A stretch of DNA of 20,000 nt from IMG/VR virus record IMGVR_UViG_3300030202_002850, positions 51,221 to 71,220 of that record; one strand, written 5' to 3'. A program made the translations under genes and the position numbers. Below, piece after piece: positions 137 to 18,621 of this stretch (position 1 is its first letter; every line of letters begins with the position of its first letter). Source of the stretch: an uncultured virus (IMG/VR IMGVR_UViG_3300030202_002850). Taxonomy: Duplodnaviria; Heunggongvirae; Uroviricota; Caudoviricetes. The notes beneath the pieces are model-generated. The model searched no databases. It saw nothing but the letters and a program-made list of their open reading frames with translations, and was not told the origin of the DNA.

Positions 137-1609
137 ATGCCGTTAGACGCTAGTGGCTACTGGTATCCATCAATAAGCCCTAAACAGTTAGAAATATTCA
201 ACTGCAACAAAAGATACCTACTTGTGAGTGGCCCTCGCTACTCCAGTAAGACTATAGGAGTATTACATAGATTGATGAGACACTGCTGGGAAACCAAAAG
301 TGGTCGAGTTGGAATCTTTTGCAAGACAATTAGAAACGCAAAGTCTGGAGTATGGAGTGACTTAATAGATATTATCATTCCAGAATGGGTAGAAAACCTT
401 GAGGGTTTTGAGCTTACAGTACCCCCCAAAGTAGACGGTGTTACTAAAATGCACTACATGAGGATATCAAACATCCACGGCAACGAAACAGAAATACAAC
501 TGCATTCACTAGACAACGACCATGATATCGAGGAAAAAATTAAAGGTACTCGGTTCTCTATGATATTCTTTTCAGAGCTTTCAAACTTTAAAGACAACTG
601 TGTGTTCACAATTAGTAAAGGACAGTTGCGATTGCCCGGATTAGATTACGGTAGACATCAGTGGATAGGGGATACAAACCCGGCAGAAGAGGGAACAAGT
701 TCATGGATATACAAATTATGGTATGACGAGCCAAATAAAGAAGACCACCCAGACCCTGAATACGCTAGTCAATTTGCAATCATAGAATCAATGATACATG
801 ACAATCCTTACCTCTCTGAATGGGATAAAAAAGATTTAATAGCAACATTTAGAGGAGACCCAGAAATGTACGACAGATATGTTTTGGGAAAGTGGACTGC
901 AAGTAGCACTGATTCTCACTTCGGGAAAGTGTTTAAACCAGATATCCATGTTATCGGGGATGTGGAAAGCCCAATAGAAGATGAATGGGAAGTTATTCTT
1001 CCATCAGATGGATGCACTGAACTTATAGGAGGCTGGGATTTAGGAGACAGGAATCATGCTTTTCATATTATGGAAAAGATAGAAACAGTCAACGGTGTAA
1101 GGTGGTCAGTTTTAGATGAGCTAGTAGTGCTACACGCAGACGTAAGTTTAGAAGACTTTGCGGGGGAGGCACTTGATAAGATAGAAAAGCTAGAAGAGTA
1201 TATTGGAAATCAAGTCAGATGGACTCATTGGTCAGACAACTCATCAATGATTAGGTACAGGGCATCTGCAAACACATACGACCATAGGGTTATAGCGGCT
1301 GCAAGTGACGGTAAGATAAACCTAATAGGAGCGCCTAAATTCAGTGGATCAGTAAGGCAGAGAGTAAAACTAATAAAAGATTTATTAATGCAAAATCGAT
1401 TACATGTTAGCGCTCACTGCCAACGAACAATCGACATGTTAAAGTTTTTAAGAAAAGGAAAGTCTGCTGGTCAGTACGTCACATCTGACGACAATAAGCA
1501 CAGCTTTGACTCTTTAAGTTACGCTTTGATTGGTGAAATGAGTTCCGACCTGATAATATCCAACGCTCCGACAAGCGGAAAAATTGGCTTAACTTCCCTC
1601 CCACTTTAA
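137..1609 (+). CDS. terL: Phage terminase large subunit
   Basis: 490 aa; Q motif (PKQ), Walker A-like LVSGPRYSSKT, Walker B-like MIFFSE, motif III DTNP, DNPYL, RYVLGKW, RNase H-like nuclease IGGWDLG and KHSFDSLSY. Confidence 0.92.
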   Translation: MPLDASGYWYPSISPKQLEIFNCNKRYLLVSGPRYSSKTIGVLHRLMRHCWETKSGRVGIFCKTIRNAKSGVWSDLIDIIIPEWVENLEGFELTVPPKVDGVTKMHYMRISNIHGNETEIQLHSLDNDHDIEEKIKGTRFSMIFFSELSNFKDNCVFTISKGQLRLPGLDYGRHQWIGDTNPAEEGTSSWIYKLWYDEPNKEDHPDPEYASQFAIIESMIHDNPYLSEWDKKDLIATFRGDPEMYDRYVLGKWTASSTDSHFGKVFKPDIHVIGDVESPIEDEWEVILPSDGCTELIGGWDLGDRNHAFHIMEKIETVNGVRWSVLDELVVLHADVSLEDFAGEALDKIEKLEEYIGNQVRWTHWSDNSSMIRYRASANTYDHRVIAAASDGKINLIGAPKFSGSVRQRVKLIKDLLMQNRLHVSAHCQRTIDMLKFLRKGKSAGQYVTSDDNKHSFDSLSYALIGEMSSDLIISNAPTSGKIGLTSLPL

Positions 1610-1664
1610 TCTTAGGAGCTTTAAACGGACTTTTTCTTGCCACTTTTTTTCTTACATAAGCTCA

Positions 1665-1952
1665 TCACCATTTAACTTTGTGCGACCAATAGCGAGCGGA
1701 TAATTTTGAAGGGCTGCTATCTTGAGCATTGTGCCTAGCATAATAACTGGCTTTCCTTGCTTTGTCTTTAGCACTCGTAGGGTTTTTACCCGCACCTTTC
1801 ACTCCTTGCTGCCCAAATCTTATTGTCTTTATCTTGTCGCCATCTTTTGCAACAACAACGTGAGACTTTGTTTTATGATTCGGAGTTCTTTTTGGTTTGT
1901 TGAACCCGCTTACTCCCGCTCTTGCGAGTCTTGGGTCTTTTTTCTTTGGCAT
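1665..1952 (-). CDS. Small basic viral protein, DUF5754/DUF6321-like
   Basis: 95 aa, K/R-rich; KTIRFGQQG...RKASYYARH...SARYWSHKVKW pattern recalled from a family widespread in marine phages and large DNA viruses. Confidence 0.7.
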   Translation of the reverse strand: MPKKKDPRLARAGVSGFNKPKRTPNHKTKSHVVVAKDGDKIKTIRFGQQGVKGAGKNPTSAKDKARKASYYARHNAQDSSPSKLSARYWSHKVKW

Positions 1953-2292
1953 TAGTTACTTTCTTTTTAGGTGTTTTCTTTTTAGCTACTTTCTTTCTAG
2001 CTCGTACTCTAGGCTTGCTAATCTTTTGAGTACTGCCTTTGTCCAGTCTGGTGCGGCTTTTGCAGCATCCTGAAACTGGGGGTGTTCGACCATCTCTTCG
2101 ACATTGTTCAGCTTCGTCGTCGCACAGCCCTGAACCATTAACCCTGTCAACAGCATCATTAATAAAATCAATTTTTTCTTCATACCTTTTTTGAGCTTTT
2201 GTTTCTTTTCGGAATTCATCTATCTTTAGAAAAAGCCGCCCCAATATAGGAACGGCTTTGATTAAAGAGGCTATCAGTTTAAGGATGCCCAT
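1873..2292 (-). CDS. Putative inner-membrane spanin (Rz-like) with basic C-terminal extension
   Basis: Follows a holin-like gene; hydrophobic/amphipathic N-terminus, helical middle with Cys residues; fully contains a lipoprotein gene in another frame. Confidence 0.5.
   Translation of the reverse strand: MGILKLIASLIKAVPILGRLFLKIDEFRKETKAQKRYEEKIDFINDAVDRVNGSGLCDDEAEQCRRDGRTPPVSGCCKSRTRLDKGSTQKISKPRVRARKKVAKKKTPKKKVTNAKEKRPKTRKSGSKRVQQTKKNSES
1986..2183 (-). CDS. Lipoprotein, putative outer-membrane spanin (Rz1-like)
   Basis: Start at 2183 gives MKKKLILLMMLLTGLMVQG|C (basic n-region, h-region, lipobox); 65 aa; embedded in 1873..2292. Confidence 0.7.
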   Translation of the reverse strand: MKKKLILLMMLLTGLMVQGCATTKLNNVEEMVEHPQFQDAAKAAPDWTKAVLKRLASLEYELERK

Positions 2293-2307
2293 TACACTTT
2301 AACAGTA

Positions 2308-2487
2308 TTAAGCTTCCCCGTTTGCAGCCTTCTCTGCTTTCTTTACGCCGTGGCGCAAGAATAAGGCTAACAGACTTGTGATTACTACGTTTGTGGCAGC
2401 ACCTAGCTCAAGCTCACCAGTAAAATAACCAGCGACTCCAGCAATTGCTCCAGTAATAGCAGTCCAAAATGTTTTTGATTTAATCAT
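2308..2487 (-). CDS. Holin-like 2-TM protein (59 aa, MIKSKTFWTAITGAIAGVAGYFTGELELGAATNVVITSLLALFLRHGVKKAEKAANGEA); not in the ORF track
   Basis: Manual translation; ATGA overlap with the upstream gene; KSKTFW N-terminus, two hydrophobic segments, basic C-terminus. Confidence 0.75.
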   Translation of the reverse strand: MIKSKTFWTAITGAIAGVAGYFTGELELGAATNVVITSLLALFLRHGVKKAEKAANGEA

Positions 2488-2831
2488 TTCTTCTTACGAT
2501 TTTTTGGTTTCGGTTTGTTAACTTCAACTGCTCCCAACTTTACAACAGTAGACCCTACCTTATTGGTAATGGTTAATGTTGGAAATGGAACGTCAATAGC
2601 TAGGTAAGGAACTTTAAAGAAAAGCCCTTCAGGAGAAACCTTAGCATCTGGAACAGTTCCAGCTTTTGCACCTAAGCAAAGAGATGGAATTGGCCAGCTA
2701 AGTTTTTGCCCGAACAGTTTAACATTAGGTGAAGGTTTTAAACCCGCACCAAACAAACTGCTTGCACTGGCGTTAGACGTTAATCCGAATAACACCCCAA
2801 TTAGTAATACACAACTTAATCTTTTCTTCAT
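2484..2831 (-). CDS. Hypothetical exported protein with signal peptide
   Basis: 115 aa; MKKR plus hydrophobic core plus ASA cleavage-like site; beta-rich mature part and basic tail; ATGA overlaps at both ends. Confidence 0.75.
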   Translation of the reverse strand: MKKRLSCVLLIGVLFGLTSNASASSLFGAGLKPSPNVKLFGQKLSWPIPSLCLGAKAGTVPDAKVSPEGLFFKVPYLAIDVPFPTLTITNKVGSTVVKLGAVEVNKPKPKNRKKK

Positions 2832-2983
2832 CTTGATTTCAGTAGGTTTAATATCTTGAGTATGATATAGACGAGGGTAGCAACACTAATAGCTACTTTT
2901 AGTAAAATATCTATTTGAAGCATCCAGTTTCCTATCCCAAGCCCCGCAGATGCGAAGACTTTTATATCGTCTATAACCCTCAT
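2828..2983 (-). CDS. Small membrane protein, holin-like (51 aa, MRVIDDIKVFASAGLGIGNWMLQIDILLKVAISVATLVYIILKILNLLKSR); not in the ORF track
   Basis: Manual translation; fills the gap exactly, TGA overlaps the next ATG; hydrophobic C-terminal helix. Confidence 0.7.
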   Translation of the reverse strand: MRVIDDIKVFASAGLGIGNWMLQIDILLKVAISVATLVYIILKILNLLKSR

Positions 2984-2986
2984 TCA

Positions 2987-3184
2987 TTACCCTTCAGACT
3001 CACTTGAGTCAGGCATTTCTATTTCTGGAGCAGGGCTTTCTGCAAGCCCACACTTAGAAGCAACTATTTGAGCTGCTTGCTTAACTTGATCATGTTCCGC
3101 CGCAGTTAATCTTGCTTGGGCTGCGGCATTAAACAGAATCTGCACAGCAGTCTGTACTTGTTGGTCTTTATTATCATCTGCCAT
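2987..3184 (-). CDS. Hypothetical protein (Ala/Gln-rich helix, acidic tail)
   Basis: ORF track 2987..3196; start moved to MADDNK (3184) because the ATG at 3196 lies in the predicted -10 box. Confidence 0.65.
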   Translation of the reverse strand: MADDNKDQQVQTAVQILFNAAAQARLTAAEHDQVKQAAQIVASKCGLAESPAPEIEMPDSSESEG

Positions 3185-3194
3185 AGGCGGGATC

Positions 3195-3224
3195 ATTGTA
3201 GCACCTTCTTTAAATATGTGGCAA
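3195..3224 (-). promoter_or_regulatory. Putative sigma70-type promoter TTGCCA-N18-TACAAT with extended -10 TG
   Basis: Minus strand reads TTGCCAcatatttaaagaaggTGcTACAAT, then 10 nt to the ATG at 3184; lies in a ~120-bp intergenic gap. Confidence 0.6.
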
Positions 3225-3314
3225 TATTCATAAACAACAATATCTGGGCCAGTTATTTACTCTTACTGCATTCACCCTTGCAAGTATCCTCAAAGCAGTC
3301 TTTGTTGGTACACA

Positions 3315-3578
3315 TTAGGTCTTCTTTCTTTTAGTGTTCGTGACTCTCCTCGGCTTCCCTGCTGGTTGACCAAGACGTTTCTTCTCTCCTATCTTCTTTT
3401 TCTTCTCAGTAGCCGACATCTCCCCGCTAGTCTTTGGGGTAGAAGCATTCACACGCTTAGACGGTCGGCAGTATGGTGTTCCACGCTTCTCGCCCTTAGA
3501 GCGCCCACACTCCTTGCCCGTCTTAACGTCCTTCCACTTCTCCTTGTGCCAGCGGCGCAGACCACCAGAGTAAGCCAT
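3315..3578 (-). CDS. DUF5872-like basic protein, C-terminal-half homolog
   Basis: GLRRWHKEKWKDVKTGKECGR...PYCRPSKRVNASTPKT motif; start MAYSGG at 3578 via TAATG overlap with the upstream stop. Confidence 0.7.
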   Translation of the reverse strand: MAYSGGLRRWHKEKWKDVKTGKECGRSKGEKRGTPYCRPSKRVNASTPKTSGEMSATEKKKKIGEKKRLGQPAGKPRRVTNTKRKKT

Positions 3579-3742
3579 TACGACCACCTACCTCCCTTTT
3601 CCTTATACCACTTAGCGGCATAAGAGTTAGAGTAAGCTGAAGGGTGTACCTTGTACTTTTTCTTGGCCTCGGACTGCGCCCTTGACCAAAGAGAAGGATT
3701 ACTCGGCTTCGGCTTCTTCTGAGCTTTCTTCTTCGTTGCCAT
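3578..3742 (-). CDS. DUF5872-like basic protein, N-terminal-half homolog (MATKKKAQKKPKPSNPSLWSRAQSEAKKKYKVHPSAYSNSYAAKWYKEKGGRWS)
   Basis: LW..A..EAKKKYKVHPSAY...YKEKGG motif; ATG at 3742 preferred over the track start at 3829. Confidence 0.7.
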   Translation of the reverse strand: MATKKKAQKKPKPSNPSLWSRAQSEAKKKYKVHPSAYSNSYAAKWYKEKGGRWS

Positions 3743-4136
3743 CAGTGTCACCTTCCGCTTCTGAAGTGTCTTCCTCAACAGGCTCAGGCTCAGGTGTAGG
3801 CTCAGGTGTAGGCTCAACAGTAGTATCAACCGTTATCTCTGGAGCTTCAAACTCCTCAACACGTTTAGGCTGTGCTTTCTGTGCCTCTATCTGAGAATCC
3901 AAACTAGCTATCCAATTGTTATCAGCAGCAAACTGTGACACTAGAGTGTTAGCCTGTTCTTTGAACTCATTGAGCATCGGCATACTATCCATTGGATATT
4001 TGTATATCCCGTCAATGTATGAACTGTTCCCGTCTGGGTCTGTTGCTTGGAGTCCTATGACAACCTCGCAAACACAGTTGGGATCATCTGATTTATGGAG
4101 AGGCTCTAGCCTCACGCATCGGTATGTATTAGCCAT
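3699..4136 (-). CDS. Hypothetical protein, possibly tail-fibre-associated; Pro/Glu-rich acidic tail
   Basis: Start MANTY at 4136 with AAGGA upstream; the track extension to 4232 overlaps a separate small gene. Confidence 0.7.
   Translation of the reverse strand: MANTYRCVRLEPLHKSDDPNCVCEVVIGLQATDPDGNSSYIDGIYKYPMDSMPMLNEFKEQANTLVSQFAADNNWIASLDSQIEAQKAQPKRVEEFEAPEITVDTTVEPTPEPTPEPEPVEEDTSEAEGDTDGNEEESSEEAEAE
3781..3816. repeat. Short tandem repeats (ggctca / ggctcaggtgta) encoding EPTPEPTPEPEP
   Basis: Directly visible 12-bp and 6-bp units. Confidence 0.8.
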
Positions 4137-4137
4137 A

Positions 4138-4254
4138 TCAATATCCTTTCTTAGGTTTTCTTCCTTTAGGTTTAGCGCTTCCTTTAGGTTTGGCACTTCC
4201 TTTTTTCGGTGGTCTTCCCACTTTACTTCCATAAGTTCCGGGGCCGTGTGGCAT
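4138..4254 (-). CDS. 38-aa basic peptide MPHGPGTYGSKVGRPPKKGSAKPKGSAKPKGRKPKKGY; not in the ORF track
   Basis: Manual translation; AAGGA upstream; MPxGxGTYGSxVGRP is a recurrent small-ORF motif in aquatic phages; 18-bp tandem repeat encodes GSAKPK twice. Confidence 0.8.
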   Translation of the reverse strand: MPHGPGTYGSKVGRPPKKGSAKPKGSAKPKGRKPKKGY

Positions 4255-4271
4255 ATCTCTATTTCCTTTCT

Positions 4272-4895
4272 TTATTTTGCTTGTGTGTCTACTGGTTCCA
4301 ATGTAGATGCCAGCATCTGTGTAAATCTTGCAAGTCCTTCGGCTGGTGGATTCTGCGTTGCTTCAACGTCTATTGAATAACGTGCTGAGAAGTCTGTTTC
4401 CCTAGTGTTTTCACTCTTAGTAGTAACGCTACCAGTGTGTGAGTTAGAATGACTGCCCCCAGCTTCAAATCCTACCCCCCAAAAATGTCCACTAACAGAA
4501 GCGTGACCTTCAGTTTTAGATTCATCTTTCTGAGTATTCTCTGATGACTCGGTGTTAGATGAATGACTCTTAACCTCCATATCAAAATGCACCTTCACAT
4601 CTGATATAGATAAGTTAGGTATCGTTACCATCGTTAATAACGGCATCTTCACCATCTGTTTTTGAGGAGTAGTTCTCCCCTTGATAAGCCGTTCAACTTC
4701 TACGTCAACGGTACGGGTTCTAGTTTTCTTTGGATCGTCTGGATCANNNNNNNNNNCGATAGAGGATACGAAATCCAAAGTTACGCCAGCTAATTTCTTC
4801 TGGCCTTTAGCCGCTGAAACTAGCGGATCTACTATGAGTTCCGAGATCGGTAGACCTTGGAAATCCTTTAATTGTGCGTCATCTGCTCCGGGCAT
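4272..4895 (-). CDS. DUF2589-like protein (long type)
   Basis: FQGLPISELIVDPLVSAAKGQ...LDFV, MPLLTMVTIPNLSISDVKVHFDMEVKS and C-terminal ATQNPPAEGLAR motifs; spans a 10-N gap at 4747-4756. Confidence 0.8.
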   Translation of the reverse strand: MPGADDAQLKDFQGLPISELIVDPLVSAAKGQKKLAGVTLDFVSSIXXXXDPDDPKKTRTRTVDVEVERLIKGRTTPQKQMVKMPLLTMVTIPNLSISDVKVHFDMEVKSHSSNTESSENTQKDESKTEGHASVSGHFWGVGFEAGGSHSNSHTGSVTTKSENTRETDFSARYSIDVEATQNPPAEGLARFTQMLASTLEPVDTQAK

Positions 4896-4899
4896 AATA

Positions 4900-5289
4900 T
4901 TATATTGTAGGTATTAATTTTACCAAGTTATCCCCAACCCTTGCCATGCCTTCAGCTTGACTTGTGCTGGAAAATTTTATCTTAACATTAGCCATTTTAG
5001 ATTTTCTTAATTTACCTAAACAGCCAATTGCTTTCTCTCCATCGTGATCTAGGTTTACCTCTAGGTCTACCTCGCATGTATCTATCTTTAATGTGTTGTG
5101 AGGGACTAACGTAAACAATGGAACCTCAACTTCCTTATCGTTTAATGTCATCTTCACAGTTTTTGCCGTTCCGTCTTCGTTGAAATAACCATCTCTAACA
5201 CTGTTAGATAGATTCTCTTCAACTGATTTTTGCGCGTGTACTACTGCTGAGTAGATTCCGTCGAATATGTTTTGTAGTTCCCCTGCCAT
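4900..5289 (-). CDS. DUF2589-like protein (short type)
   Basis: IFDGIYSAVVHAQ...YFNEDG...VPLFTLVPHNTLKID...VKIKF...AEGMARV; shares VPL.T.V and AEG.AR motifs with its neighbour. Confidence 0.8.
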   Translation of the reverse strand: MAGELQNIFDGIYSAVVHAQKSVEENLSNSVRDGYFNEDGTAKTVKMTLNDKEVEVPLFTLVPHNTLKIDTCEVDLEVNLDHDGEKAIGCLGKLRKSKMANVKIKFSSTSQAEGMARVGDNLVKLIPTI

Positions 5290-5627
5290 TATTCAATAAT
5301 TTCCGAAGTTCCGTAAGCTGCCGTGTATTTCAACCTCAAAGAGTCCACATGCTTTTCAATCTCGTCAATATCTTTCTCTAAATATCGCAACCTCATATTC
5401 TGCTCAGCATCATCAGGAAGAGCGCCAAGCTCTCCTCTTGGCCACTTTATCCTAAACTCAGAATTAGCTCCAACATTCTGCTCCATTCTCATTATTTGAA
5501 TTTCGATTTGTTGGATTCTGCTAGTCAGCCCAAAGTAACCCCAAACCGCCATTGCACTCACAACTACAATTTGTATAAGCCATTTAAGGTTTATACCCAA
5601 GTTAGTATTATCATCTAAGTCTGCCAT
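5289..5627 (-). CDS. Membrane-anchored coiled-coil phage protein
   Basis: One TM segment (WLIQIVVVSAMAVWGYFGL), heptad-like helices, NSEFRIKWPRGELGALP motif. Confidence 0.75.
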   Translation of the reverse strand: MADLDDNTNLGINLKWLIQIVVVSAMAVWGYFGLTSRIQQIEIQIMRMEQNVGANSEFRIKWPRGELGALPDDAEQNMRLRYLEKDIDEIEKHVDSLRLKYTAAYGTSEIIE

Positions 5628-5895
5628 AATTCATTTCCATTAATGCGGGCATTGCCCTAAATTTATTAGTCGTAACACCCCAGTCAAAAATACTTTTTTC
5701 CTCTTGTGCTGGATGTGTCGGGTAATACTCTATATCTAATCCACCAAAATCCGCTTCAAGGCTTTTAATGTTTTTGCAACCAGAGCCGAATAAAATACAA
5801 ATAATAGATAGTAAAAAAATAATTACCCACCTATGAACCTCCTCTTTATATCTGGCCCAGATATTATCCCTGTAAACTATTTCTTCTTTTATCAT
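5611..5895 (-). CDS. Putative lipoprotein / membrane protein
   Basis: WVIIFLLSIICILFGSG|C lipobox-like segment after a long n-region; overlaps both neighbours. Confidence 0.65.
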   Translation of the reverse strand: MIKEEIVYRDNIWARYKEEVHRWVIIFLLSIICILFGSGCKNIKSLEADFGGLDIEYYPTHPAQEEKSIFDWGVTTNKFRAMPALMEMNYGRLR

Positions 5896-6308
5896 CTTTT
5901 CCTTCCTGTTGGCTTTTCAACCAACTCGACTTTCATAGGCTCCTTCTCGCTCCCTTTCGGAAGATACTCAGGAGCATGGTTGGTTAATACTTTTTCACAC
6001 GTTAATGTTGATAATACCGTGTTTCTAACTCTCATAGCCGTTTGCCTATCTTCCATATAAAACACTGTCTCCCTAGCTCCTATCCTTGCTATACGGGCTT
6101 GTCTTCCATTCAGGAAAACTATCTCATCCACCGCCCATTGTTTAGAAAAATAAACCCCAAGCCCTGCGGCAAACTCTTGAATTAATTCTCTGAATAACAG
6201 TAATGCTACTCCAGCAGCAAACACCCAGATCCATTCAGTCATAAGACCCTTAGCTGCTCCTTCAATTATATTTGGATTACTTAATTGCTCTATTAAATTA
6301 GTATTCAT
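5892..6308 (-). CDS. Minimal MscS-family-like protein (TM3 plus beta-domain)
   Basis: LLFRELIQEFAAGLGVYFSKQWAVDEIVFLNGRQARIARIGARETVF...RVRNTVL aligns by eye with the MscS consensus (LAFQD.L.N..AG.......PF.VGD.I...G..G.V..IG.R.T.......IPN..L). Confidence 0.7.
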   Translation of the reverse strand: MNTNLIEQLSNPNIIEGAAKGLMTEWIWVFAAGVALLLFRELIQEFAAGLGVYFSKQWAVDEIVFLNGRQARIARIGARETVFYMEDRQTAMRVRNTVLSTLTCEKVLTNHAPEYLPKGSEKEPMKVELVEKPTGRKR

Positions 6309-6331: not shown

Positions 6332-6403
6332 CTATTCTCTACACCCCGCCCCTACCCATATTACAAAAACGGATAGTGCTATAATTATTATCCATCGCTT
6401 CAT
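6332..6403 (-). pseudogene. Truncated lipoprotein ORF (MKRWIIIIALSVFVIWVGAG|CRE*)
   Basis: ATGA-coupled to the upstream gene; complete lipoprotein-like signal peptide, then TAG after only three mature residues. Confidence 0.4.
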
Positions 6404-6624
6404 GGTTCTGTTGCGTGGCAGTTATAACACCGATCTACCACTTCTATTGTTTTGTGAAAATCATCTAACTCTAACATCGTTTTAAACTCATGCTGATAAT
6501 GGTGACACACAGCTATGTCTGATGATCTCTTAGCCTTACTAATTGCTCCCACATACATAGAATACAAGATACCTAACATGACTATTACTATTAGTAGCTC
6601 AAGTATTGTGTGGGAGTTTTCCAT
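6400..6624 (-). CDS. Prepilin/pseudopilin-like small protein with C-terminal CxxCH motif
   Basis: SHTILELLIVIVMLGILYSMYVGAISKAK...C resembles [28 protein letters not shown]...C; CYNCH near the C-terminus; TAATG coupling to the tail-fibre stop. Confidence 0.7.
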   Translation of the reverse strand: MENSHTILELLIVIVMLGILYSMYVGAISKAKRSSDIAVCHHYQHEFKTMLELDDFHKTIEVVDRCYNCHATEP

Positions 6625-9600
6625 TAGATCTGCCCCTCATACTCAACGTCATACCGTTCAACATCTGCACGTTCTCCGTAAATAGTGTAGTAGCAATCAA
6701 TGTCTGCTCCATTAGCCTCACCAATCTTCACCTCTACGTTAGATGCACTAATCACATACAACTGCTGAAATGATCCTTTAGGTGTTAGCTGGACAGTAAC
6801 CGTGCCGTCTCTAACCAACCCTGCCCAGTAATCTGGTAGATCAATCGTGTCACCTTGAACTTCCCCACGTTGATAAACCCCAATCTCTGGCCCTTCCAAA
6901 CTTGAGTGACGAAGTTTGTGACCAGTTTTAGTTGGGTGATTAATTTTAAATGATTTACTAATGCCACCAACGTCACCGTTTATATACATATTACCACTAG
7001 CAAAAATGGCGTAACTGCTATTAGGACTAGTACCAACTCCGAGTCTTGTAGTGATCTGGGCATCTCCCACAACGTGTAGGTTTTCATCACCGGGGGATGT
7101 CTTGTTAACAGTTAGTGAATGGTCGGAGCCATTGTAAAATAAACGTGGTGCTTGTTTGACTGTTGTGCTTGCTGTGTAAACCGCTATGTTTCCATTAGTT
7201 GTGCTAGTCGTAACTGAGCTTGATGAAACTGTACCACTGCCACTGCCGCTAGACGCACTATTCCAAAGGACAGACCCAGAAGATGATTTAAGTGCAATTG
7301 CGTCAGTGCCAATTTCTAAGTACTGGTTACTGCCTCCACTGAATGTGATTCTAGAGTTAAGGGTTAGGTTTCCACTAAGGGATAGATGCCCATCCTCATC
7401 CAAAGTCATGCGGTCATAACCAGTTCCACCTTTGGTTGTAGAAAAAATTAAATCAGCATCACCATCCCCCGCAAATTCGGTACGAATAGTTCCTTCAGCA
7501 GCAGCAGAACTACTGTTGATTTTCATTTGGATAGCACAGAAACGACCAGTGTTAATTGATCCACTGTCGCTATTACGCAGCACCAAAATAGAGTCAGACT
7601 GATCGTTTAAATTAAATGAAGTATCTGCACTTGGGAAAGCAACCTCCAAGCCCTCAGTGAACGGTGCAGATGTCCCAATTCCTACCTGACCTCCAGTAAA
7701 CCAAGAGGAACCATCAGTATGAATCTGAACCTTTTGTGTTCCTCCATCCTTGTAAGCACGGATTAAACAGTCGTTACCAGACTGACGAACATTGAACATC
7801 GCATCGCCAGCGGAATCTTTCATGTTCAGTACATTGGTTCCATCGCCAGTACTTTTAATTAAGAAAGCATCAGATGCATCTGCGGCAACATTAACGCCTA
7901 AGTTAGTTAAATGAGTTCTACCCTCAACCTTTAAGCCTAAATCTCCTGAGTCAGCATTTGTAATGTGCAGCGGATAATTCCCAGTGTTAGCCTCAATAGT
8001 ACACGCACCACTAGCACCTACAGCAAAACGAGTGTTACCGCTATCGCCCTTACACCTAAAAATATTTCCACTGCCTTGCTGAACATCAAGGGCTGTATTG
8101 GATGGTACGATTCCAATTCCAACGCCCCCTGAACTAATTTTTAATCTACCAATCGCACTAGTACCAAATGTCAGCAGTTCATTATCATGGTTGTACTCTA
8201 TGTACCCTCTATACTTCTGATTACCATTTACACCATCACCAAAATAAATTGAACCCGTATGAGAAGTCCCAGAGCGAATAGTCATTCCAGCGTGACCGCC
8301 AGTATGCCCTAGAACAAAATCGTCAGCAGTTGATTCTGCATAAGTGTCAGGAGGCAGGGCGTTTAAAAATAATCTTTTACTATTATCAACTGCTAAACAT
8401 TCAGTGTCATGTAAAAATACTGCAAACCCATCAACCTCATCTGATCCATCGTGAAGTGATTTTAATTCAAGCTCGTTTGACGTAGCTCCACCCCTACGCC
8501 CAACTCTCAAGAATGTTGACCAAGAAATTCCTCCGTCTGTTGGGTCTAAAATATCAAGGACAGTAGCTCGGTTCGTACTAGGGTTTCTGTTAAAAGATAA
8601 TTTACCGTGTAATGTGGAATGCCCGTCCTTGTCCCAGTATTGAACCGCAGTTGTTCCCGTCCCTTCTGTACCAGCATCACCCAAAGTTGGAACCCGTGTG
8701 TTGTTATCTCCTCTCAGTAGTGCGAAGTAACCTTTTCCAGCAGAAATTTTGTAAGCATTTGTAAACGCCCACATTCTTTCATTGCCCGTCCAACTTGCTC
8801 CAGTATTCCAAACCAAAAATCCTTGACTGCTTAACCTAGCTCCTGATCCTCCTGAGTCGTATTGAACCGAATAACCACGGAGAGTGTGAGTCATTGGATC
8901 GCTAAACGAAGTGCCGGGTCTACCAATTTTAACCCCACCAACCTCCATGCGAAGCACACCAGAAGTTCCTAAAACATCAGCTTGAATATAACCACCGCCA
9001 TGTGTGCCAATGATCCTTGTGTTAGCGTTGTTCCAGTATAAACCATAACCATTGTCCAACTGTATATTACCATTCCCGACTGTGAATTTTTCAGCGATCT
9101 GGCTTGGGCTTTTTCCTAACCCTGTTTTACCAGCACCCGTTACGATTAATGCAGATGCGTCACCTCCAGTGTTAACCCTTAGTCCCATCGCAGACGTTCC
9201 AGAAGAAGCTATTTGAACATTAAGTCCGTTGTCCTCCGACTGAGTTCCGCTATTGTATAAATATGCAAGAAAAGCACTGTTCCCTAAATCACCAGTTACA
9301 TGGAGGAGGCTTGTGGGCGATACAGTTCCTACCCCTAGCGACCCCGTAATTGTAGCTCCAGCGGAAGTCGTCTCAAACTTCTTTGACCCATCGTAAAAAA
9401 GCTCAACTGCACCGTTATTGCCAGTACCATCCTTTTTAAAAATAGCAGAGAACTTTTGTCCACCCTTGTATGAGAAATTTAAATTACCAGCATTAGTGCC
9501 TTGCTGCATATATGTGTTAGACCCGTCATGGAATATTTGAAGATCGTCACCACTGCCCCAAACAGATTTAACATTATCGTTGGCACGGGTGAGTTCCATG

Positions 9601-12600
9601 CTCTCATCCCACTCCCAGAATTTTCCGTTATCTGCCCAAAACCTTACATCATGCCCACTACCGTTTGCTCCAACTGTTAACGGTTTGTAGACATTAAAGG
9701 ATGACGAGTTAAACTCTACTACGCTAGTTGACCCAGCGTTAAGCCTACGCATCCCAGAATCGTCTACATATAACCTAAATGAGTTAGTGCCGTTGACAAC
9801 AGCAATACCATCCGTGTTGGTTCCCGCTGGTTGGGCCACACCAAAATGTCCGTAACCTGAGAGGTCTGTTGAATTAACTGAAACGTGTTGGGATTCGTTA
9901 ATCCGCATCGCCTCAACTAGATTAGGCCCACCAGATGCGTTAGATGTCCAAAACCCTATAGATCCAGTGTGAGTTGCTCCCGGCTCAAGCACTTGGATTC
10001 TTGCAGTAGCATTTGAGTTTCCAGTTGCATTGCGAGTAAAATCAATATTGCGAACATGACCTGACGAATTATCAATTTGTAATTTAGTTAAGTCGGTTGC
10101 TCCATCAACAAACAAATATCCGTAGACCTCAGTATTGCTTGCGATAGAAGTCGTAGATGACGATATGGTCATTCTAGTTGTCCCAGCACGTTGGATTAAA
10201 AAATTGTGGCTAGAATTTGTTCCAACGACAGCATCACCGCCTGCACGGTTAGCAGTTAGGCGAGCTATGACTGTCCCACTTTTTACTATGTTCTGAAATA
10301 AAGGAGCGTTATTTGCGGTGCTACCAGTTGTTAAGTCACCAGTAGGTATTTCAACATTTCCTCCCGGCAGAATTGTAAGACGATCTACTAAAGTATCATC
10401 TGCCGTTCCCGGTGTTGCGAAAGCTATTTTAGCGGGAGCAGAAACAGTGTTCGCCGCTCCATGACGAGTAACAGTTATAGCCGCTGAATTTCTGTAGCTA
10501 GAACCAGAAGGAGCGTATGCTACATAAGAAGTTGTACCGATAATGTCTCCATCACTTGTTCCTGTCGGGCTTGCTTCTGTTCCAGTTGATCGTTGGAAGA
10601 ATTGCCTCACCGCCCCCGAACTGTGTCCAGAGCCACTGTAATGCAACATCAGGTGATTCCCGTCTGCTGCTGAAATATGTAATGATTTAGCTGGGGCTGA
10701 ATTTCCTATGCTGCAATTTCCATTGTTCCTCACGAAGAATCCCGTCCCTGCTCCAGTGTAGGTTGCAAGTGCATAAACAGTCGTTCCCGAATTAGCAGAA
10801 CAATCAATGCTTAGACCGTAACCATTTGTGTGTGTATTTTTAATACGAGCAGCCCAATCAGCTTCATTCTCTAAAACATCAAGGCGTACAGCGGGTACGC
10901 AGTTAATTCCAAAATCCCCACTTGTATCTAGGATCATTTTTACGGAATTGTTATTTAGGAAATATAAGTTCTGATTATTCGCAGCATTTAAATAAGTTGA
11001 CCCAGCAGAACTTTGAATTAATGCGTAGTTCCCCGTTCCACCAGCATCAATGTGAGAAAATCCAGCGTAATCACTATGTCCGATGTATCCAACTTTAGCT
11101 CGGCCTAAAACATGGTAACTGTCGGTGTCGTTTAAGGCTTCTAACCTACCGCTTTCATGTATGCTGAGTTTGCCAGCAGATGTACCAATGTCTAAATAGT
11201 CATTCGGATCGGAACCTGACCGTCCAGAAATTGTCCACGTTTCATTACCCGTGGCGGTCATGGTTATAAAATTATTGTTGTCTGCTCGCTCAGTAATAAA
11301 TCCACCATCAGCAGTTACCGACCCAGAAAAATCTCCAGCCGTTCCATAAATTAACCAACGCTTGTTACTCAGACCCAAACCGTAACCGGGGTCATTAGGA
11401 TAGAGTGCCGAACTAGAAATTATCGCTCGTTTAGTTCCAGAAGCACTTCCCGATACACCGCCAGCAGTGTGTTCACTGGTAGCAGCAGTCCTAAACTGCA
11501 TAGCACCAGACTCGTTCATTATGGAAACGCCTTGGCCGCTGGTTCCAGTTTCTAAAAATAATCTAGGACTTAGGTTATCATTTTCGCCACCCTTAATAAC
11601 CACCCCATCAGCACCATCTGTGCCTTGCAGAACTATTCGGTTTGAAAACTCATTAACGTCACCCAACTTTGCCAACTGTTCATAGCAAGAGATTTTGTCT
11701 AAGTTGAAACTACTACCGCTGTCACTTGCCCAAAATGCTAGGCTAGTGTCGGTAACAACAATTTCTACAGTATATGTTCCGGGGTTGTGATCGGTATAAC
11801 CTGAGTAAACATAGCCAGAACTTCCAGCCATGTTGCCAATCCATATTTTAGCAACCCCCGAACCCCCTACAGTAAAAGTAAGTTTGAATGTTTTGCCCTT
11901 GTCAGCAGCAGTGAATATAGATTGCTGAGTTAGTTGGTTGCTTCCAGAAGTTGTATTGAATGTTGCAACACCTGACCCTAGCACCCAACCTGATCCTAAT
12001 GTCCAATTGCTTGTGCTGCTAAAATCGCCATTAGAGATTCTGTTAGTTGTGCTGTAAGTTTTAACAACACCTCGCACGGAAGGAATATTTACACCCAATG
12101 AACTGATACGCATCCTTTCCGTCAACGCACTCATCGCACCTTTTCCAGTAGAAAAAATTAATTCTCCGTGGTAAGGGTCTGCTCCTGTTAGGCAAGTGAT
12201 TGAAGCCCGATGATAAGAGTTACCAAAAGAGGCAAATGTAATTGCTGAAGAATCTGTCGTTCCACCAGCGGTATTATCCAACATTAATACTGGGCCTAAA
12301 CCATTTGAATTTGACTTAGCTAAATGAAGGAGTTGTGACGGGGCAGTTGTACCTAACGCTGCGAAGCCACTACTAAGAATATTAAAATTATTTGCCGAAG
12401 CCTGTGCTGCTGCACCAAAACCTAAAACACTATTCTCAGCGACGATATATGCACTTGTGTCGTTGTCTGCGACTCTAAGTTTAGCCCTGTTGGTTCTAGA
12501 TTTTACCGTTAGCCCAACTTCAGCCCCACCTTCAGAATTAAACGTGACTAATTTTGTTTCGCCATTAACAGAGTTGCCAACTTGAAGGTTGTTAGAAAGA

Positions 12601-14432
12601 ACAATATCTGTTGCATCAAAACTAATTTTCTCTGTTCCACCATACTGGAATATCGCCCTGCCAGATCCCGGTGGAATAATGTTAATACGAGCATTAGCGT
12701 TAGTTCCTGTTGGTGTAATTGTTAACTGTGCCGCTGCATCAGTGGAGGTAATGGAAAGATGTCCAGCAGACGATATGGCTAACCTCTCAGTTAAGCTACT
12801 GCCAGAACCAGAAGGTGAAGTGTAAAATTTTAAATCACCATCATCCCCACTAGAATGAGAGCGGATCATCGCAATGCTGTTACTGTTATTTGCAAACAGA
12901 ACCTGACCAGCATCACTACCTCCTGTCCTTTTACCTTCTAATTTTAAAACAGCAGCGTCACCCGTTTTATCATTGTGAATATGCAGTTGAGTGTTTCCAG
13001 AGGTTGCTGAGTTATGTAAATGTAAGAGGCTTGTCGGGGATACTGTTCCCAGCCCTAAATTGCCACCCGTAAACCAACTGTTTCCATTACTGGATAAACC
13101 AACCTTACTTGAATTATTTTTGTCTAAAACATACGCAGCACCATCGCCATCTGCGTCTTGGTAAACTCCAAATATTTTGTCGCTGTCAAGTGAACTAATA
13201 ACTGCAAACGGGTACGAGGAATTGCCCCCACTTTTAATTGTTGTTGCACCAGCAGACGATATAGTTAGCCTCTCTGCATCGTCGGTGAACATCCGAATTG
13301 ACCCTGCCTTTTTATGCAGAATGTCTAGATGACCAGCATCGCCAGTGACACCAATCATGCTTATGGTTGAGCCACTATCTTTCAACTCAATGTAACCAGT
13401 AGCATTCGTTCCCCATGTTCCTCCATCTTGGATCGTTAGCACTGGAGCAGATGAATATAAATGTAGGAGACTTGATGCTGAAGTAGTTCCAAGGCCAGTG
13501 TTGCCTCCATCTAAAACTACTAAGGCAGAAGCGTTGTTTCCAACGATGGTGCTTGAACCTGATCTATAAATTATGTTCGCAGAATTAGCTGCATTGTTTA
13601 GTGTGTCTGCATTAACTATTCCCGTGACTTTGATTCCAGTAGTTAATGTTTCCAGCTTGAGACTGTTGTTGTGGTACAGCTTAACTGGCCCATCTGGTTC
13701 AAACGTGGCTAGTTTTTCTGAAGACCCGTATTTGTAAAATCCATTGTCAGCAGTTCCCGCAACTTCAATTTTTAATCCACCAGTGCCTTGGTCTTGGATC
13801 AGCGAATTAGAACCGTCATGTTTAATAATTAAATCGCCGCCAGTTCCAATAGAAATTCTATCATCATCAGCTAACTCTAAATCGCCTGAGAGTGTTAACG
13901 TGTCATCAACAGTTACGGCTCCGTTAAAATATGACGTTCCGTTATTGTAAAAATCAAAACTGTTATTAACCGAACCTACATTGAGTTTTCCAAAAAGATG
14001 CCCTGTTCCTGTTGCGGTTATTGCTCCTCCAAAAGTACAACTGCCATCGCTATTTAAAGCAAACTGGTGCAGAGAACTTATATCATTGTAGAAGCTCAAT
14101 TTCGTATCAGCTTCATATTGAAACACCCGCCACTTATCTGTGCCTCCTCTTTGGAAAGCAATTGAAGTGAGTGATCCTCCAGAGCTAATAGTAGGGTTAA
14201 GCCTTAATATCTTATTAGTGGAAGTAGATATTGTTAACGCACCACTAAGTGTGCCGCCAGCTAAAGGGAGATAACTTGTGGATACAGATGGGTTGAGATG
14301 GATTACTCCATTGGCAGCGGCGTTGCCAACATATAACTTACTGTCTGAAAGATTAACCGCTAACTCGCCAGCCGCTAACCCGCTAGGTACGCCAGCAGAT
14401 GTACGCCGTTTAATCTGAAGTGTGTTGGCCAT
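6624..14432 (-). CDS. Giant tail fibre / receptor-binding protein (2602 aa)
   Basis: N-terminal IKRR...LAAGELAVNLSDSKLYVG fibre anchor; many GxxGxGTxSP..LLH / ERLTISS fibre repeats; G/S/T/N-rich; C-terminal SKSFKINHP..LRHSSLEGPE..VYQRG domain typical of aquatic phage fibres. Confidence 0.88.
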   Translation of the reverse strand: MANTLQIKRRTSAGVPSGLAAGELAVNLSDSKLYVGNAAANGVIHLNPSVSTSYLPLAGGTLSGALTISTSTNKILRLNPTISSGGSLTSIAFQRGGTDKWRVFQYEADTKLSFYNDISSLHQFALNSDGSCTFGGAITATGTGHLFGKLNVGSVNNSFDFYNNGTSYFNGAVTVDDTLTLSGDLELADDDRISIGTGGDLIIKHDGSNSLIQDQGTGGLKIEVAGTADNGFYKYGSSEKLATFEPDGPVKLYHNNSLKLETLTTGIKVTGIVNADTLNNAANSANIIYRSGSSTIVGNNASALVVLDGGNTGLGTTSASSLLHLYSSAPVLTIQDGGTWGTNATGYIELKDSGSTISMIGVTGDAGHLDILHKKAGSIRMFTDDAERLTISSAGATTIKSGGNSSYPFAVISSLDSDKIFGVYQDADGDGAAYVLDKNNSSKVGLSSNGNSWFTGGNLGLGTVSPTSLLHLHNSATSGNTQLHIHNDKTGDAAVLKLEGKRTGGSDAGQVLFANNSNSIAMIRSHSSGDDGDLKFYTSPSGSGSSLTERLAISSAGHLSITSTDAAAQLTITPTGTNANARINIIPPGSGRAIFQYGGTEKISFDATDIVLSNNLQVGNSVNGETKLVTFNSEGGAEVGLTVKSRTNRAKLRVADNDTSAYIVAENSVLGFGAAAQASANNFNILSSGFAALGTTAPSQLLHLAKSNSNGLGPVLMLDNTAGGTTDSSAITFASFGNSYHRASITCLTGADPYHGELIFSTGKGAMSALTERMRISSLGVNIPSVRGVVKTYSTTNRISNGDFSSTSNWTLGSGWVLGSGVATFNTTSGSNQLTQQSIFTAADKGKTFKLTFTVGGSGVAKIWIGNMAGSSGYVYSGYTDHNPGTYTVEIVVTDTSLAFWASDSGSSFNLDKISCYEQLAKLGDVNEFSNRIVLQGTDGADGVVIKGGENDNLSPRLFLETGTSGQGVSIMNESGAMQFRTAATSEHTAGGVSGSASGTKRAIISSSALYPNDPGYGLGLSNKRWLIYGTAGDFSGSVTADGGFITERADNNNFITMTATGNETWTISGRSGSDPNDYLDIGTSAGKLSIHESGRLEALNDTDSYHVLGRAKVGYIGHSDYAGFSHIDAGGTGNYALIQSSAGSTYLNAANNQNLYFLNNNSVKMILDTSGDFGINCVPAVRLDVLENEADWAARIKNTHTNGYGLSIDCSANSGTTVYALATYTGAGTGFFVRNNGNCSIGNSAPAKSLHISAADGNHLMLHYSGSGHSSGAVRQFFQRSTGTEASPTGTSDGDIIGTTSYVAYAPSGSSYRNSAAITVTRHGAANTVSAPAKIAFATPGTADDTLVDRLTILPGGNVEIPTGDLTTGSTANNAPLFQNIVKSGTVIARLTANRAGGDAVVGTNSSHNFLIQRAGTTRMTISSSTTSIASNTEVYGYLFVDGATDLTKLQIDNSSGHVRNIDFTRNATGNSNATARIQVLEPGATHTGSIGFWTSNASGGPNLVEAMRINESQHVSVNSTDLSGYGHFGVAQPAGTNTDGIAVVNGTNSFRLYVDDSGMRRLNAGSTSVVEFNSSSFNVYKPLTVGANGSGHDVRFWADNGKFWEWDESMELTRANDNVKSVWGSGDDLQIFHDGSNTYMQQGTNAGNLNFSYKGGQKFSAIFKKDGTGNNGAVELFYDGSKKFETTSAGATITGSLGVGTVSPTSLLHVTGDLGNSAFLAYLYNSGTQSEDNGLNVQIASSGTSAMGLRVNTGGDASALIVTGAGKTGLGKSPSQIAEKFTVGNGNIQLDNGYGLYWNNANTRIIGTHGGGYIQADVLGTSGVLRMEVGGVKIGRPGTSFSDPMTHTLRGYSVQYDSGGSGARLSSQGFLVWNTGASWTGNERMWAFTNAYKISAGKGYFALLRGDNNTRVPTLGDAGTEGTGTTAVQYWDKDGHSTLHGKLSFNRNPSTNRATVLDILDPTDGGISWSTFLRVGRRGGATSNELELKSLHDGSDEVDGFAVFLHDTECLAVDNSKRLFLNALPPDTYAESTADDFVLGHTGGHAGMTIRSGTSHTGSIYFGDGVNGNQKYRGYIEYNHDNELLTFGTSAIGRLKISSGGVGIGIVPSNTALDVQQGSGNIFRCKGDSGNTRFAVGASGACTIEANTGNYPLHITNADSGDLGLKVEGRTHLTNLGVNVAADASDAFLIKSTGDGTNVLNMKDSAGDAMFNVRQSGNDCLIRAYKDGGTQKVQIHTDGSSWFTGGQVGIGTSAPFTEGLEVAFPSADTSFNLNDQSDSILVLRNSDSGSINTGRFCAIQMKINSSSAAAEGTIRTEFAGDGDADLIFSTTKGGTGYDRMTLDEDGHLSLSGNLTLNSRITFSGGSNQYLEIGTDAIALKSSSGSVLWNSASSGSGSGTVSSSSVTTSTTNGNIAVYTASTTVKQAPRLFYNGSDHSLTVNKTSPGDENLHVVGDAQITTRLGVGTSPNSSYAIFASGNMYINGDVGGISKSFKINHPTKTGHKLRHSSLEGPEIGVYQRGEVQGDTIDLPDYWAGLVRDGTVTVQLTPKGSFQQLYVISASNVEVKIGEANGADIDCYYTIYGERADVERYDVEYEGQI

Positions 14433-17955: not shown

Positions 17956-18285
17956 ATGTCTCACTATGTTATACATCGTGAACCCGGAGATGGAGGATTG
18001 TATTTCTGCGAAACATGTGGAGATCTTTATTTCTCTCCTCTGCCAGATGTGCCGACAATTTGTTTAGATTGTCTGTACTCTAACAGAAACAGGAATAGAT
18101 TAATTAAGGTTTATGGGCCTAGTTATAAAGACAGCTTAGAAGAAAACACCATGCTTACCCAATCTGAGGTTGGGAACATCATGGGAATAAGCAGACAACG
18201 GGTTCAGCAAATTGAGATAATCGCTATGGCTAAGGTTAGAGCCTATCTAATCAAATCAAACGAAACTAAAATAAAACTAAGCATA
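17956..18285 (+). CDS. Zn-finger plus sigma70 region-4-like HTH, reading in frame into ssb
   Basis: CETC-x14-CLDC; MLTQSEVGNIMGISRQRVQQIEIIAMAKVR matches the sigma r4.2 pattern TL.EIG...G.SRERVRQIE..AL.KLR; start may be TTG at 17998. Confidence 0.7.
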
Positions 18286-18621
18286 ATGAATCAAGTTGCA
18301 ATAGTAGGTAAAGTAGTAAGAGATGCACAAGTAAGAGAAACCAAAAATGGTAATCCAATGCTTACTGTGACAATCGTAACAGAAAAAGTAGGAACAGAAG
18401 ATAGAACTTTCCAGACTTATTGGGATGTTCTGTCATTCGGTGATAAAGCAATTTCACTTGCTGATAAGTTGAAAGAAGGGGCTGCTGCCTTTGCTACTGG
18501 CGAAGTTTCTGTTTCAACATACGAGAATAAAGATGGTGCAACAAAAGCATCTCTTAAATGCGTAGGAACAGTAGGTGTAATTGGTGGCATCCCAAAAGAT
18601 GACACTGATCAAATGTTTTAG
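18286..18621 (+). CDS. ssb: Single-stranded DNA-binding protein
   Basis: MNQVAIVGKVVRDAQVRETKNG...YWDVLSFGDKA...LKEG...GEV...YENKDG OB-fold pattern; short acidic tail DDTDQMF. Confidence 0.88.
   Translation: MNQVAIVGKVVRDAQVRETKNGNPMLTVTIVTEKVGTEDRTFQTYWDVLSFGDKAISLADKLKEGAAAFATGEVSVSTYENKDGATKASLKCVGTVGVIGGIPKDDTDQMF

Follow-up and report, generated by a model that had tools for sequence, protein, structure and literature searches.

A conserved pair of DUF2589 genes in the late operon of an uncultured marine phage, with a possible role at the host envelope

Introduction

Here we describe a pair of adjacent genes of the DUF2589 family (Pfam PF11655) in the late operon of an uncultured marine phage of the class Caudoviricetes, known from IMG/VR record IMGVR_UViG_3300030202_002850. 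The DNA that was analysed, below called the window, is a stretch of 20,000 nucleotides (nt) and forms the final 20 kb of this 71,220-bp virus record, which CheckV rates as complete. The closest described systems are the PF11655 cassettes of bacteria and archaea, which resemble the window in the family match, in the adjacency of a long and a short copy, and in the framework FDMEVK...ENTR..D.SAKY...EGLAR. However, the cellular cassettes have a partner of 85-114 amino acids (aa) without Pfam family (60 of 80 loci), a lipoprotein-like partner of about 150 aa (28 of 80) and an adjacent hydrolase, while the window has none of these three. Further, the candidate beta-hairpin between the anchor motifs is 52 residues long in the window versus 40 in the cellular cassettes, and far more polar and His-rich, and the short copy has 129 aa versus 144-200 aa.

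A second point of comparison is the holin-endolysin(-spanin) cassette. The pair in the window is similarly found at the end of a late operon among small membrane proteins, and the pairs of its relatives adjoin leaderless hydrolases (GH24, GH19, GH108, M15 and Amidase_2), as in holin-endolysin cassettes and in bacterial protein release. In contrast to holins, the DUF2589 proteins have no transmembrane helix and no holin match, and they would act from the cytoplasm by means of a beta-hairpin. In contrast to lysis cassettes, there is no endolysin beside the pair in the window. The lysis module of the Bacillus prophage PBSX is XhlA-XhlB-XlyA, and a small XhlA-like, membrane-anchored coiled-coil protein stands beside the pair both in the window (112 aa) and in a related viral locus, L048 (69 aa). 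However, the matches of these proteins to phrog_1193 are weak and cover 26-53 residues, and neither an XhlB-type holin nor an amidase is found beside them here.

The third comparison is with beta-barrel pore formers such as aerolysin, alpha-haemolysin and the gasdermins. Like these, DUF2589 proteins have a Ser/Thr/Gly-rich stretch with an aromatic tip between two long strands, and in the cellular homologs hydrophobic and polar residues alternate across the stretch. Gasdermins are cytosolic pore formers without an export signal, and the DUF2589 proteins likewise have none. The differences are that DUF2589 has no sequence or fold match to the pore formers, a small core with helices, an obligatory paralog without the hairpin, and no protease partner seen; in the window the hairpin is also apolar only at its tip.

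DUF2589 is a widespread family without structure or experiment, and with essentially no literature. At 50% identity its members fall into 3,083 clusters (E<=0.001, from 1.84 billion representatives), and it was found at 284 places in viral contigs and at no fewer than 502 in cellular genomes. Judged by record titles, these belong to Pseudomonadota, Desulfobacterota, Bacillota, Actinomycetota, Spirochaetota, Planctomycetota, Acidobacteriota and Bacteroidota, and to archaeal bins. Among 50,697 records of GenBank phages, tblastn with the long copy of the window and with a distant viral long copy gave no match. Full-text search, which covers literature outside subscription journals, found no paper that names PF11655. 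Two papers mention DUF2589 in passing, one as a row in a table of a study of the carbapenem response of B. fragilis, the other in one sentence on the induced genes AF0414-AF0417 of A. fulgidus.

Results

Two diverged copies of DUF2589

The pair and the elements inside it are:

4272-4895, minus strand: long DUF2589 paralog, 207 aa, the canonical form of the family (PF11655 E 2.4e-27, 96.6 bits)
4392-4571, minus strand: polar, Ser/Thr/His-rich candidate beta-hairpin with tip FWGVGF, residues 109-168 of the long copy (from sequence)
4748-4757, no strand: stretch of 10 N within the long gene, read as XXXX at residues 47-50
4900-5289, minus strand: short DUF2589 paralog, 129 aa (PF11655 E 9.1e-12, 46 bits)

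An initial annotation, made from the letters of the window alone, had described two adjacent paralog-like genes of 129 and 207 aa and had called them DUF2589-like. Its coordinates are exact, with 4 nt between the two minus-strand genes, and both proteins score above the PF11655 cut-off of 23 bits (the gathering score). The long copy covers positions 1-152 of the 154 in the profile, and no other PF11655 matches occur in the 71,220-bp record.

The long copy has 92 homologs, the nearest of which is 94% identical and likewise 207 aa long. For the short copy there are 32 (alignment A2), all of them PF11655, at 52-98% identity. Compared with each other by BLASTP the two copies match at E 0.026 only, and the match between their family profiles has a probability of 74% (E 2.8e-5) and spans the N-terminal helix plus strands one to three. 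The short copy shares the core of the long one, with a 19-residue basic loop containing a conserved Cys in the place of the hairpin. The two are very diverged paralogs.

The initial annotation had considered that the N-run might join unrelated contigs. Instead, the 10 N stand opposite 10 bases in a gapless alignment with three relatives (L003, L005 and L009). Given this alignment and the length of 207 aa in the homologs, the run keeps the register, and the sequences on its two sides belong together. The virus record (G000) has N-runs of 28 bases at 49116-49143 and of 10 bases at 55967-55976, the latter being the one inside the long gene.

The pair is a conserved module

Viral loci were counted in the best 80 of the 284 confirmed ones, and cellular loci in the best 80 of at least 502 confirmed places. 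In 78 of the 80 viral loci, as in the window, the long and the short copy are direct neighbours on one strand; in the two exceptions the end of the contig or locus cuts the pair. The short copy comes first in 54 viral loci and the long copy in 24. In the cellular genomes both copies are present, adjacent and co-oriented in 76 of 80 loci. The statement of the initial annotation that DUF2589 occurs as gene pairs is thus borne out in viruses as well as in cells, and so is its proposal of a two-component system.

Wall hydrolases beside the cellular pair

Cellular neighbour genes were called with a filter on GC3. Several of the recurrent neighbours act on, or bind to, the cell wall: a GH108+PG_binding_3 protein is found in 16 of the 80 loci, GH19 in 12, a PG_binding_1 protein in 9, and an Amidase_2/phage lysozyme in 3. 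In half of the loci (40/80) at least one of these four families is found no more than four genes from the pair. Of the 645 genes that lie no more than four positions from the pair, 41 belong to these wall families, versus 1 of the 500 more distant genes in these loci (Fisher p 8e-10), a p-value that overstates independence since the loci are phylogenetically redundant, 13 of them for instance being from Luteibacter.

All 42 wall-family genes are co-oriented with the pair, and 31 of them are directly adjacent to it. A hydrophobic run at the N-terminus is found in none of the 42, i.e. the enzymes are leaderless. Because four different enzyme families fill the same slot in different phyla, a functional link between the pair and the hydrolases is indicated.

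The other recurrent neighbours are a third DUF2589-like paralog (14/80) and regulators of LuxR-type response regulator (14), AraC (7) and OmpR (6) type. The initial annotation had also stated that DUF2589 sometimes lies near R-body (reb) loci. This did not hold: no Reb family is present among the 32 recurrent families of neighbours that were scanned in the 80 cellular loci (singletons lie outside that scan), nor among 100 representatives of viral neighbours, which comprise one per recurrent cluster and some selected singletons.

Fusions of DUF2589 to wall enzymes were not found. All 18 of the longer representatives carry PF11655 only, although a search by length is weak evidence. Some cellular homologs have C-terminal extensions of about 170 residues without Pfam match, which by eye look like coiled coil.

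Neighbours of the pair in phages

The phage clade of the window consists of loci L003-L038 (36 loci) together with the window itself. Outside this clade, some pairs lie near an endolysin. A Pfam-confirmed endolysin is found no more than five genes from the pair in 13 of the 80 viral loci, in five lineages:

L040-41, L044-46, L048-50 and L060: phage lysozyme (GH24) near the pair (Pfam)
L052-54: Peptidase_M15 near the pair (Pfam)
L061: GH19 near the pair (Pfam)

In L043-47 the pair and the lysozyme are placed between the genes of the small and large terminase subunits (TerS and TerL), and in L052-53 the pair adjoins a DNA polymerase gene. In 21 of the 80 viral loci, which belong to a distant clade, the pair has a 67-aa Zn-ribbon protein at its side. 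Two small neighbours have weak matches to lysis-related families, a 69-aa protein in L048 to the "hemolysin" phrog_1193 (E 2.9e-5) and an 82-aa protein in L036-38 to a holin PHROG (E 5e-4).

In the clade of the window the pair typically comes after tail-fibre-like genes, either directly or no more than two genes later (e.g. L010, L016-19, L021 and L026-28). Representatives of these fibre families carry Peptidase_S74. After the pair comes an acidic protein (13 loci) or a protein of 71-92 aa (11 loci), and then small membrane proteins, of families found in 24, 12 and 6 loci.

This position could mean that the pair is part of the virion, as the initial annotation had also considered. It would then be a packaged or tail-associated ejection component and, when a host is infected, would form a channel across its envelope. 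The tail-fibre-like genes before the pair in many loci of the clade, the late region close to TerL, and the small basic proteins that follow the pair are in line with such a role. However, it fits poorly with the hundreds of cellular cassettes, at least 502 places, which have response regulators and AraC-type regulators as neighbours and no phage genes nearby. Further, in other phages the pair lies outside the structural modules (L043-47, L052-53), and it matches no structural family of PHROG. We therefore consider a virion part improbable.

Phage neighbourhoods also vary in ways that have no obvious relation to the envelope. In L067-L069 and L073, loci of jumbo phages of about 270 kb, a CAP-family protein, a patatin-like phospholipase and a secreted non-specific endonuclease precede the pair (at about 1467-5952). 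A TonB-dependent receptor is found near the pair in L065. HSP20 genes lie a few genes from the pair in two unrelated lineages, L039 (3671-4144) and L052-L054 (e.g. L053 239-718).

Since patatin and nuclease (L067-69, L073), the TonB-dependent receptor (L065) and HSP20 (L039, L052-54) are among the neighbours, the pair might have another late or accessory role away from the envelope, such as anti-defence, superinfection exclusion or host takeover. On the other hand, there is no PADLOC match, and such a role would leave the recurrent, co-oriented and mostly adjacent wall hydrolases of the cellular loci unexplained. We regard it as rather unlikely.

The hairpin region and the predicted structures

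The alignment of long-type homologs (A1) contains 42 proteins, 20 from the marine phage clade and 22 of cellular type. All share the framework FDMEVKS, a variable hairpin, and G-S-V...ENTR..D.SAKY...EGLAR. As this framework runs through all the aligned homologs, the hairpin region is ancestral to the family, and the short paralog either lost it or never had it. The initial annotation had noted the Ser/Thr-rich insert with its hydrophobic tip, and the stretch is indeed found with FWGVGF at residues 109-168, but as a conserved feature of the family and not as a peculiarity of this copy.

Between the anchor motifs there are 52 residues in the phage clade versus 36-40 in the cellular forms. The hairpin of the window is 12 residues longer than in the cellular homologs and far more polar and His-rich, with a mean Eisenberg hydrophobicity of -0.12 and 35% Ser+Thr; its apolar part is limited to about eight residues on each side of the tip. 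Within the phage clade, conservation is 0.70 for the tip, 0.73 for the return arm and 0.72-0.82 for the core.

Beta-periodicity was measured as the hydrophobic moment at 170 degrees versus 500 shuffles in 40 proteins, two of the 42 rows of A1 having been dropped as their anchor motifs are absent. It exceeds z 2 in 28 of the 40, and in the cellular members the alternation reaches z 2.2-4.3. The alternating residues described by the initial annotation are therefore a property of the family at large; in the protein of the window itself they are not above chance.

Models of the single proteins were made with AlphaFold2 (AF2) from alignments and are poor, with a mean pLDDT of 54.1 for the long and 56.4 for the short copy. 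Both have the same topology, which opens with a long N-terminal helix, continues with a beta-hairpin and a short helix, and then has two long strands separated by a loop or hairpin before it closes with a C-terminal helix. In the long copy the two long predicted strands, residues 95-110 and 167-181, flank a region of low pLDDT. On the extended hairpin or ring for which the initial annotation had suggested looking in models, models of this quality speak neither for nor against.

Searches for relatives by structure gave little. The comparison with known folds that the initial annotation had proposed returned no match in the PDB by Foldseek, the best E being 0.79 for the long and 1.2 for the short copy, from these low-pLDDT models. 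VIA-align against 48,161 chains gave matches at the level of helices only, with best Z of 4.5 and 4.1 from the same models. In BFVD one viral homolog was found, A0A516MP19 (E 3.4e-9), with no named fold, and the ESM Atlas without the PF11655 clusters gave nothing at 0.8 or above. By sequence and profile, the PDB contains no relative, only four rows at chance level (E 0.18-0.74); together with the passing mentions in the literature this agrees with the view of the initial annotation that DUF2589 is uncharacterised. A predicted complex of the long and short copies had a score of 0.26 and a mark of 0.32, and counts as evidence neither way.

Neither protein has a hydrophobic segment at its N-terminus, and a crude hydropathy scan, which was used to call all transmembrane and hydrophobic segments, finds no transmembrane segment in either. 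As neither shows an export signal, both copies are predicted to be cytoplasmic. Neither matches a holin family in Pfam or PHROG, and neither has a Pfam match at E<=0.01 to the pore-former families (aerolysin, ETX/MTX2, leukocidin and other toxins).

These results bear on the idea, prompted by the initial annotation, that the long copy is a secreted beta-barrel toxin of the aerolysin type, with the short copy as a helper, released when the host cell lyses. A Ser/Thr-rich stretch with a hydrophobic tip between two long strands is what such a toxin would have, the hairpin of the cellular homologs is amphipathic, and the neighbouring leaderless hydrolases could serve as a release device. However, the proteins lack a signal peptide and a transmembrane segment as well as any Pfam match to toxins, the core has long helices in the AF2 models, unlike the all-beta fold of aerolysin, and the hairpin of the window, its tip apart, is too polar to cross a bilayer. 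A secreted toxin is thus very improbable.

Alternatively, the two proteins may assemble in the cytoplasm into a soluble oligomer, such as a ring, collar or scaffold made from the alpha/beta core, in which the polar hairpins build a soluble beta-barrel, and which controls, sequesters or activates a partner such as a wall hydrolase. Proteins with a ring-building motif, e.g. SpoIIIAG and FliF, form soluble beta-barrels from hairpin inserts. The highly polar hairpin of the window without significant alternation agrees with this, the C-terminal extensions of about 170 residues in some cellular homologs would suit a scaffold, and the strict pairing fits a hetero-oligomer. Against it, no fold match was obtained (the best VIA Z values of 4.5 and 4.1 being for helices only), and the aromatic-glycine tip and the amphipathic cellular hairpin (z up to 4.3) look more like parts in contact with a membrane. 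We judge a soluble oligomer to be unlikely, although it deserves to be kept in mind.

The late operon around the pair

The pair is contained in a long, tightly packed late operon on the minus strand. In the direction of transcription the order is the fibre-like protein of 2,602 aa, four small proteins, the 129-aa and 207-aa copies of DUF2589 and an acidic protein, followed by more small basic and membrane proteins down to 1665 (minus strand). At least four small membrane proteins flank the pair. The neighbours are:

6624-14432, minus strand: 2,602-aa fibre-like protein without Pfam family; its C-terminus matches two PHROGs of unknown function
6400-6624, minus strand: 74-aa protein encoded next to the end of the fibre gene, hydrophobic segment at its N-terminus (phrog_13280 E 2.5e-5)
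5892-6308, minus strand: 138-aa protein with one hydrophobic segment and no family match (Pfam, PHROG, PADLOC, NCBIfam)
5611-5895, minus strand: 94-aa protein with one hydrophobic segment ending GSGC; overlaps both neighbours; no Pfam or PHROG match
5289-5627, minus strand: 112-aa membrane protein, hydrophobic segment at its N-terminus and a charged helical region after it (phrog_20984 E 1.4e-21)
3699-4232, minus strand: acidic protein directly downstream of the long copy, open reading frame (ORF) of 177 aa without Pfam or PHROG match
137-1609, plus strand: TerL, the large terminase subunit, which converges on the late operon

The tail of the 74-aa protein is rich in Cys and His (C..H...H, C..C.H), and L003 and L004 have the protein too. 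In the same two loci the family of the 94-aa protein (f68) adjoins the pair; by its sequence the protein is possibly a lipoprotein. The 112-aa protein, which has a weak match to phrog_1193, "hemolysin" of XhlA type (E 7.3e-4), is a singleton cluster and was not found in related loci. The stop codon of its gene overlaps the ATG of the short DUF2589 gene by 1 nt (TAATG), which suggests that the two are translationally coupled.

The true start of the acidic protein is probably Met33 (position 4136), for a length of 145 aa, since its relatives begin at this internal Met. Its family (f7) is found beside the pair in 13 related loci of the clade. We also considered that this protein of 145 or 177 aa is a diverged form of the small cellular partner, but this was ruled out (hhalign probability 0.1%).

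The best matches of TerL among the 50,697 GenBank phage records are to haloarchaeal siphoviruses and to Gordonia phage Jace, at 24-29% identity. Therefore the phage belongs to a lineage without a close cultured relative among the GenBank phages.

Downstream of the pair there are small, very basic proteins rich in Lys and Arg (1665-1952, 3315-3587 and 3578-3829, minus strand). Matches in this run are to DUF5872 (E 3.6e-13), phrog_7595 (E 4.5e-35) and phrog_27331, and similar basic proteins recur near the pair in relatives (family f16, 9 loci). In the same region a 77-aa ORF (1986-2219, minus strand) is nested in another frame within a 139-aa ORF (1873-2292, minus strand). The former has a lipoprotein-like signal ending VQGC and the latter an N-terminal hydrophobic segment, a layout that resembles embedded spanin pairs such as Rz/Rz1 of lambda. 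PHROG has no match for either product. In relatives, similar proteins, lipoprotein-like (f8) and N-anchored (f18), are found near the pair.

In a 221-aa protein elsewhere in the window (17956-18621, plus strand), a helix-turn-helix of Sigma-70 region 4 (residues 65-95, E 3.1e-8) is joined to a single-stranded DNA-binding domain, SSB (residues 111-201, E 3.2e-13), an unusual fusion. The record also encodes a 3,160-aa protein (G000 20178-29660, minus strand) without Pfam family or PHROG match. Scans for promoters and terminators did not exceed shuffled sequences, with 23 found versus 27.5 expected and 4 versus 9.4.

Discussion

The DUF2589 pair is a genuine conserved module, and the window contains a minimal, partner-less marine phage variant of it, with a longer, polar and His-rich hairpin. 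From its context we infer a role at the envelope or in lysis, and this is the best available reading. The membrane or lysis function proposed in the initial annotation is supported only by the company that the pair keeps: the wall hydrolases close to the cellular pairs (41/645 versus 1/500) and the endolysins in five phage lineages. In a more definite form, which we favour tentatively and with less than even confidence, the pair is a two-protein module that acts on the host envelope late in infection, likely as an accessory to lysis. Also in its favour are the strict pairing in viral and cellular loci, the beta-type alternation of the hairpin region in 28 of 40 family members, a tip and return arm about as well conserved as the core, and, in the window, the overlap between the start of the pair and the stop of a membrane protein with a weak XhlA-type PHROG match, among at least four small membrane proteins.

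The mechanism may be pictured as follows; its co-assembly, membrane insertion and link to lysis are all inferred. Both proteins would be made in the cytoplasm, where the long subunit and the short subunit without hairpin would co-assemble through their shared alpha/beta core. The conserved Trp/Gly-tipped hairpin of the long subunit would then engage or permeabilise the cytoplasmic membrane from the inside, and wall-degrading enzymes or other lysis factors would thereby be able to act. The job of a holin would thus be performed by a protein that is not a holin. In the marine phage clade only the two genes would be left of the module, placed where the late operon ends, with the tail-fibre genes on one side and the small membrane proteins on the other.

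A number of observations weigh against a lysis accessory of this kind. The first group concerns the hairpin. In the AF2 model pLDDT is below 50 over residues 106-171 of the long copy, and no confident hairpin is seen. The beta-periodicity of the window protein is z 1.3 versus the 500 shuffles, which is not above chance, and arm 1 of the hairpin is the least conserved segment in the phage clade (0.52). Because the hairpin is polar, the z value low and arm 1 poorly conserved, a membrane-spanning barrel is doubtful here.

The second group concerns the context. No wall hydrolase is recognised in the window by Pfam, PHROG or NCBIfam, nor near the pair among the scanned neighbour families of the 36-locus clade. 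A single wall enzyme is recognised in the genome, at a distance of about 42 kb from the pair:

G000 13750-14184 (L083), plus strand: DPBB_1 protein (RlpA-like lytic transglycosylase), 144 aa, with an N-terminal hydrophobic segment, in the replication region

Further, an endolysin at 13 of 80 viral loci is roughly what chance would give when a phage of 60-100 genes has one lysin, and direct adjacency to an endolysin (7 loci, 3 lineages) exceeds chance only weakly by our own estimate. The partners seen elsewhere are also missing: a hidden Markov model of the 85-114-aa cellular partner finds nothing at E<=1 among 1,237 viral and window ORFs, and the Zn-ribbon partner is absent from the clade of the window. 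Finally, PHROGs, PADLOC and NCBIfam have no family for either copy and so give no support for a role in lysis.

A wider form of the idea extends from this phage to the whole family. DUF2589 pairs might be an unrecognised class of cytoplasmic membrane-breaching devices based on beta-hairpins, i.e. an analogue of holins built from soluble subunits. We offer this with considerable doubt. If it holds, such devices would let leaderless wall hydrolases reach the wall in phages and in many bacteria and archaea, and the marine phage pair with its long His/Ser-rich hairpin would be the minimal, two-gene form.

What the pair means for the biology of these organisms depends on which explanation is right. 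As a scaffold or as part of the virion it would be an ordinary phage gene pair of unknown function. If instead the pair does act at the envelope, it would represent an undescribed route by which the envelope is controlled or breached, and a path without holin to phage lysis, regulated autolysis or protein release, for which the minimal pair of this phage would be a convenient two-gene system.

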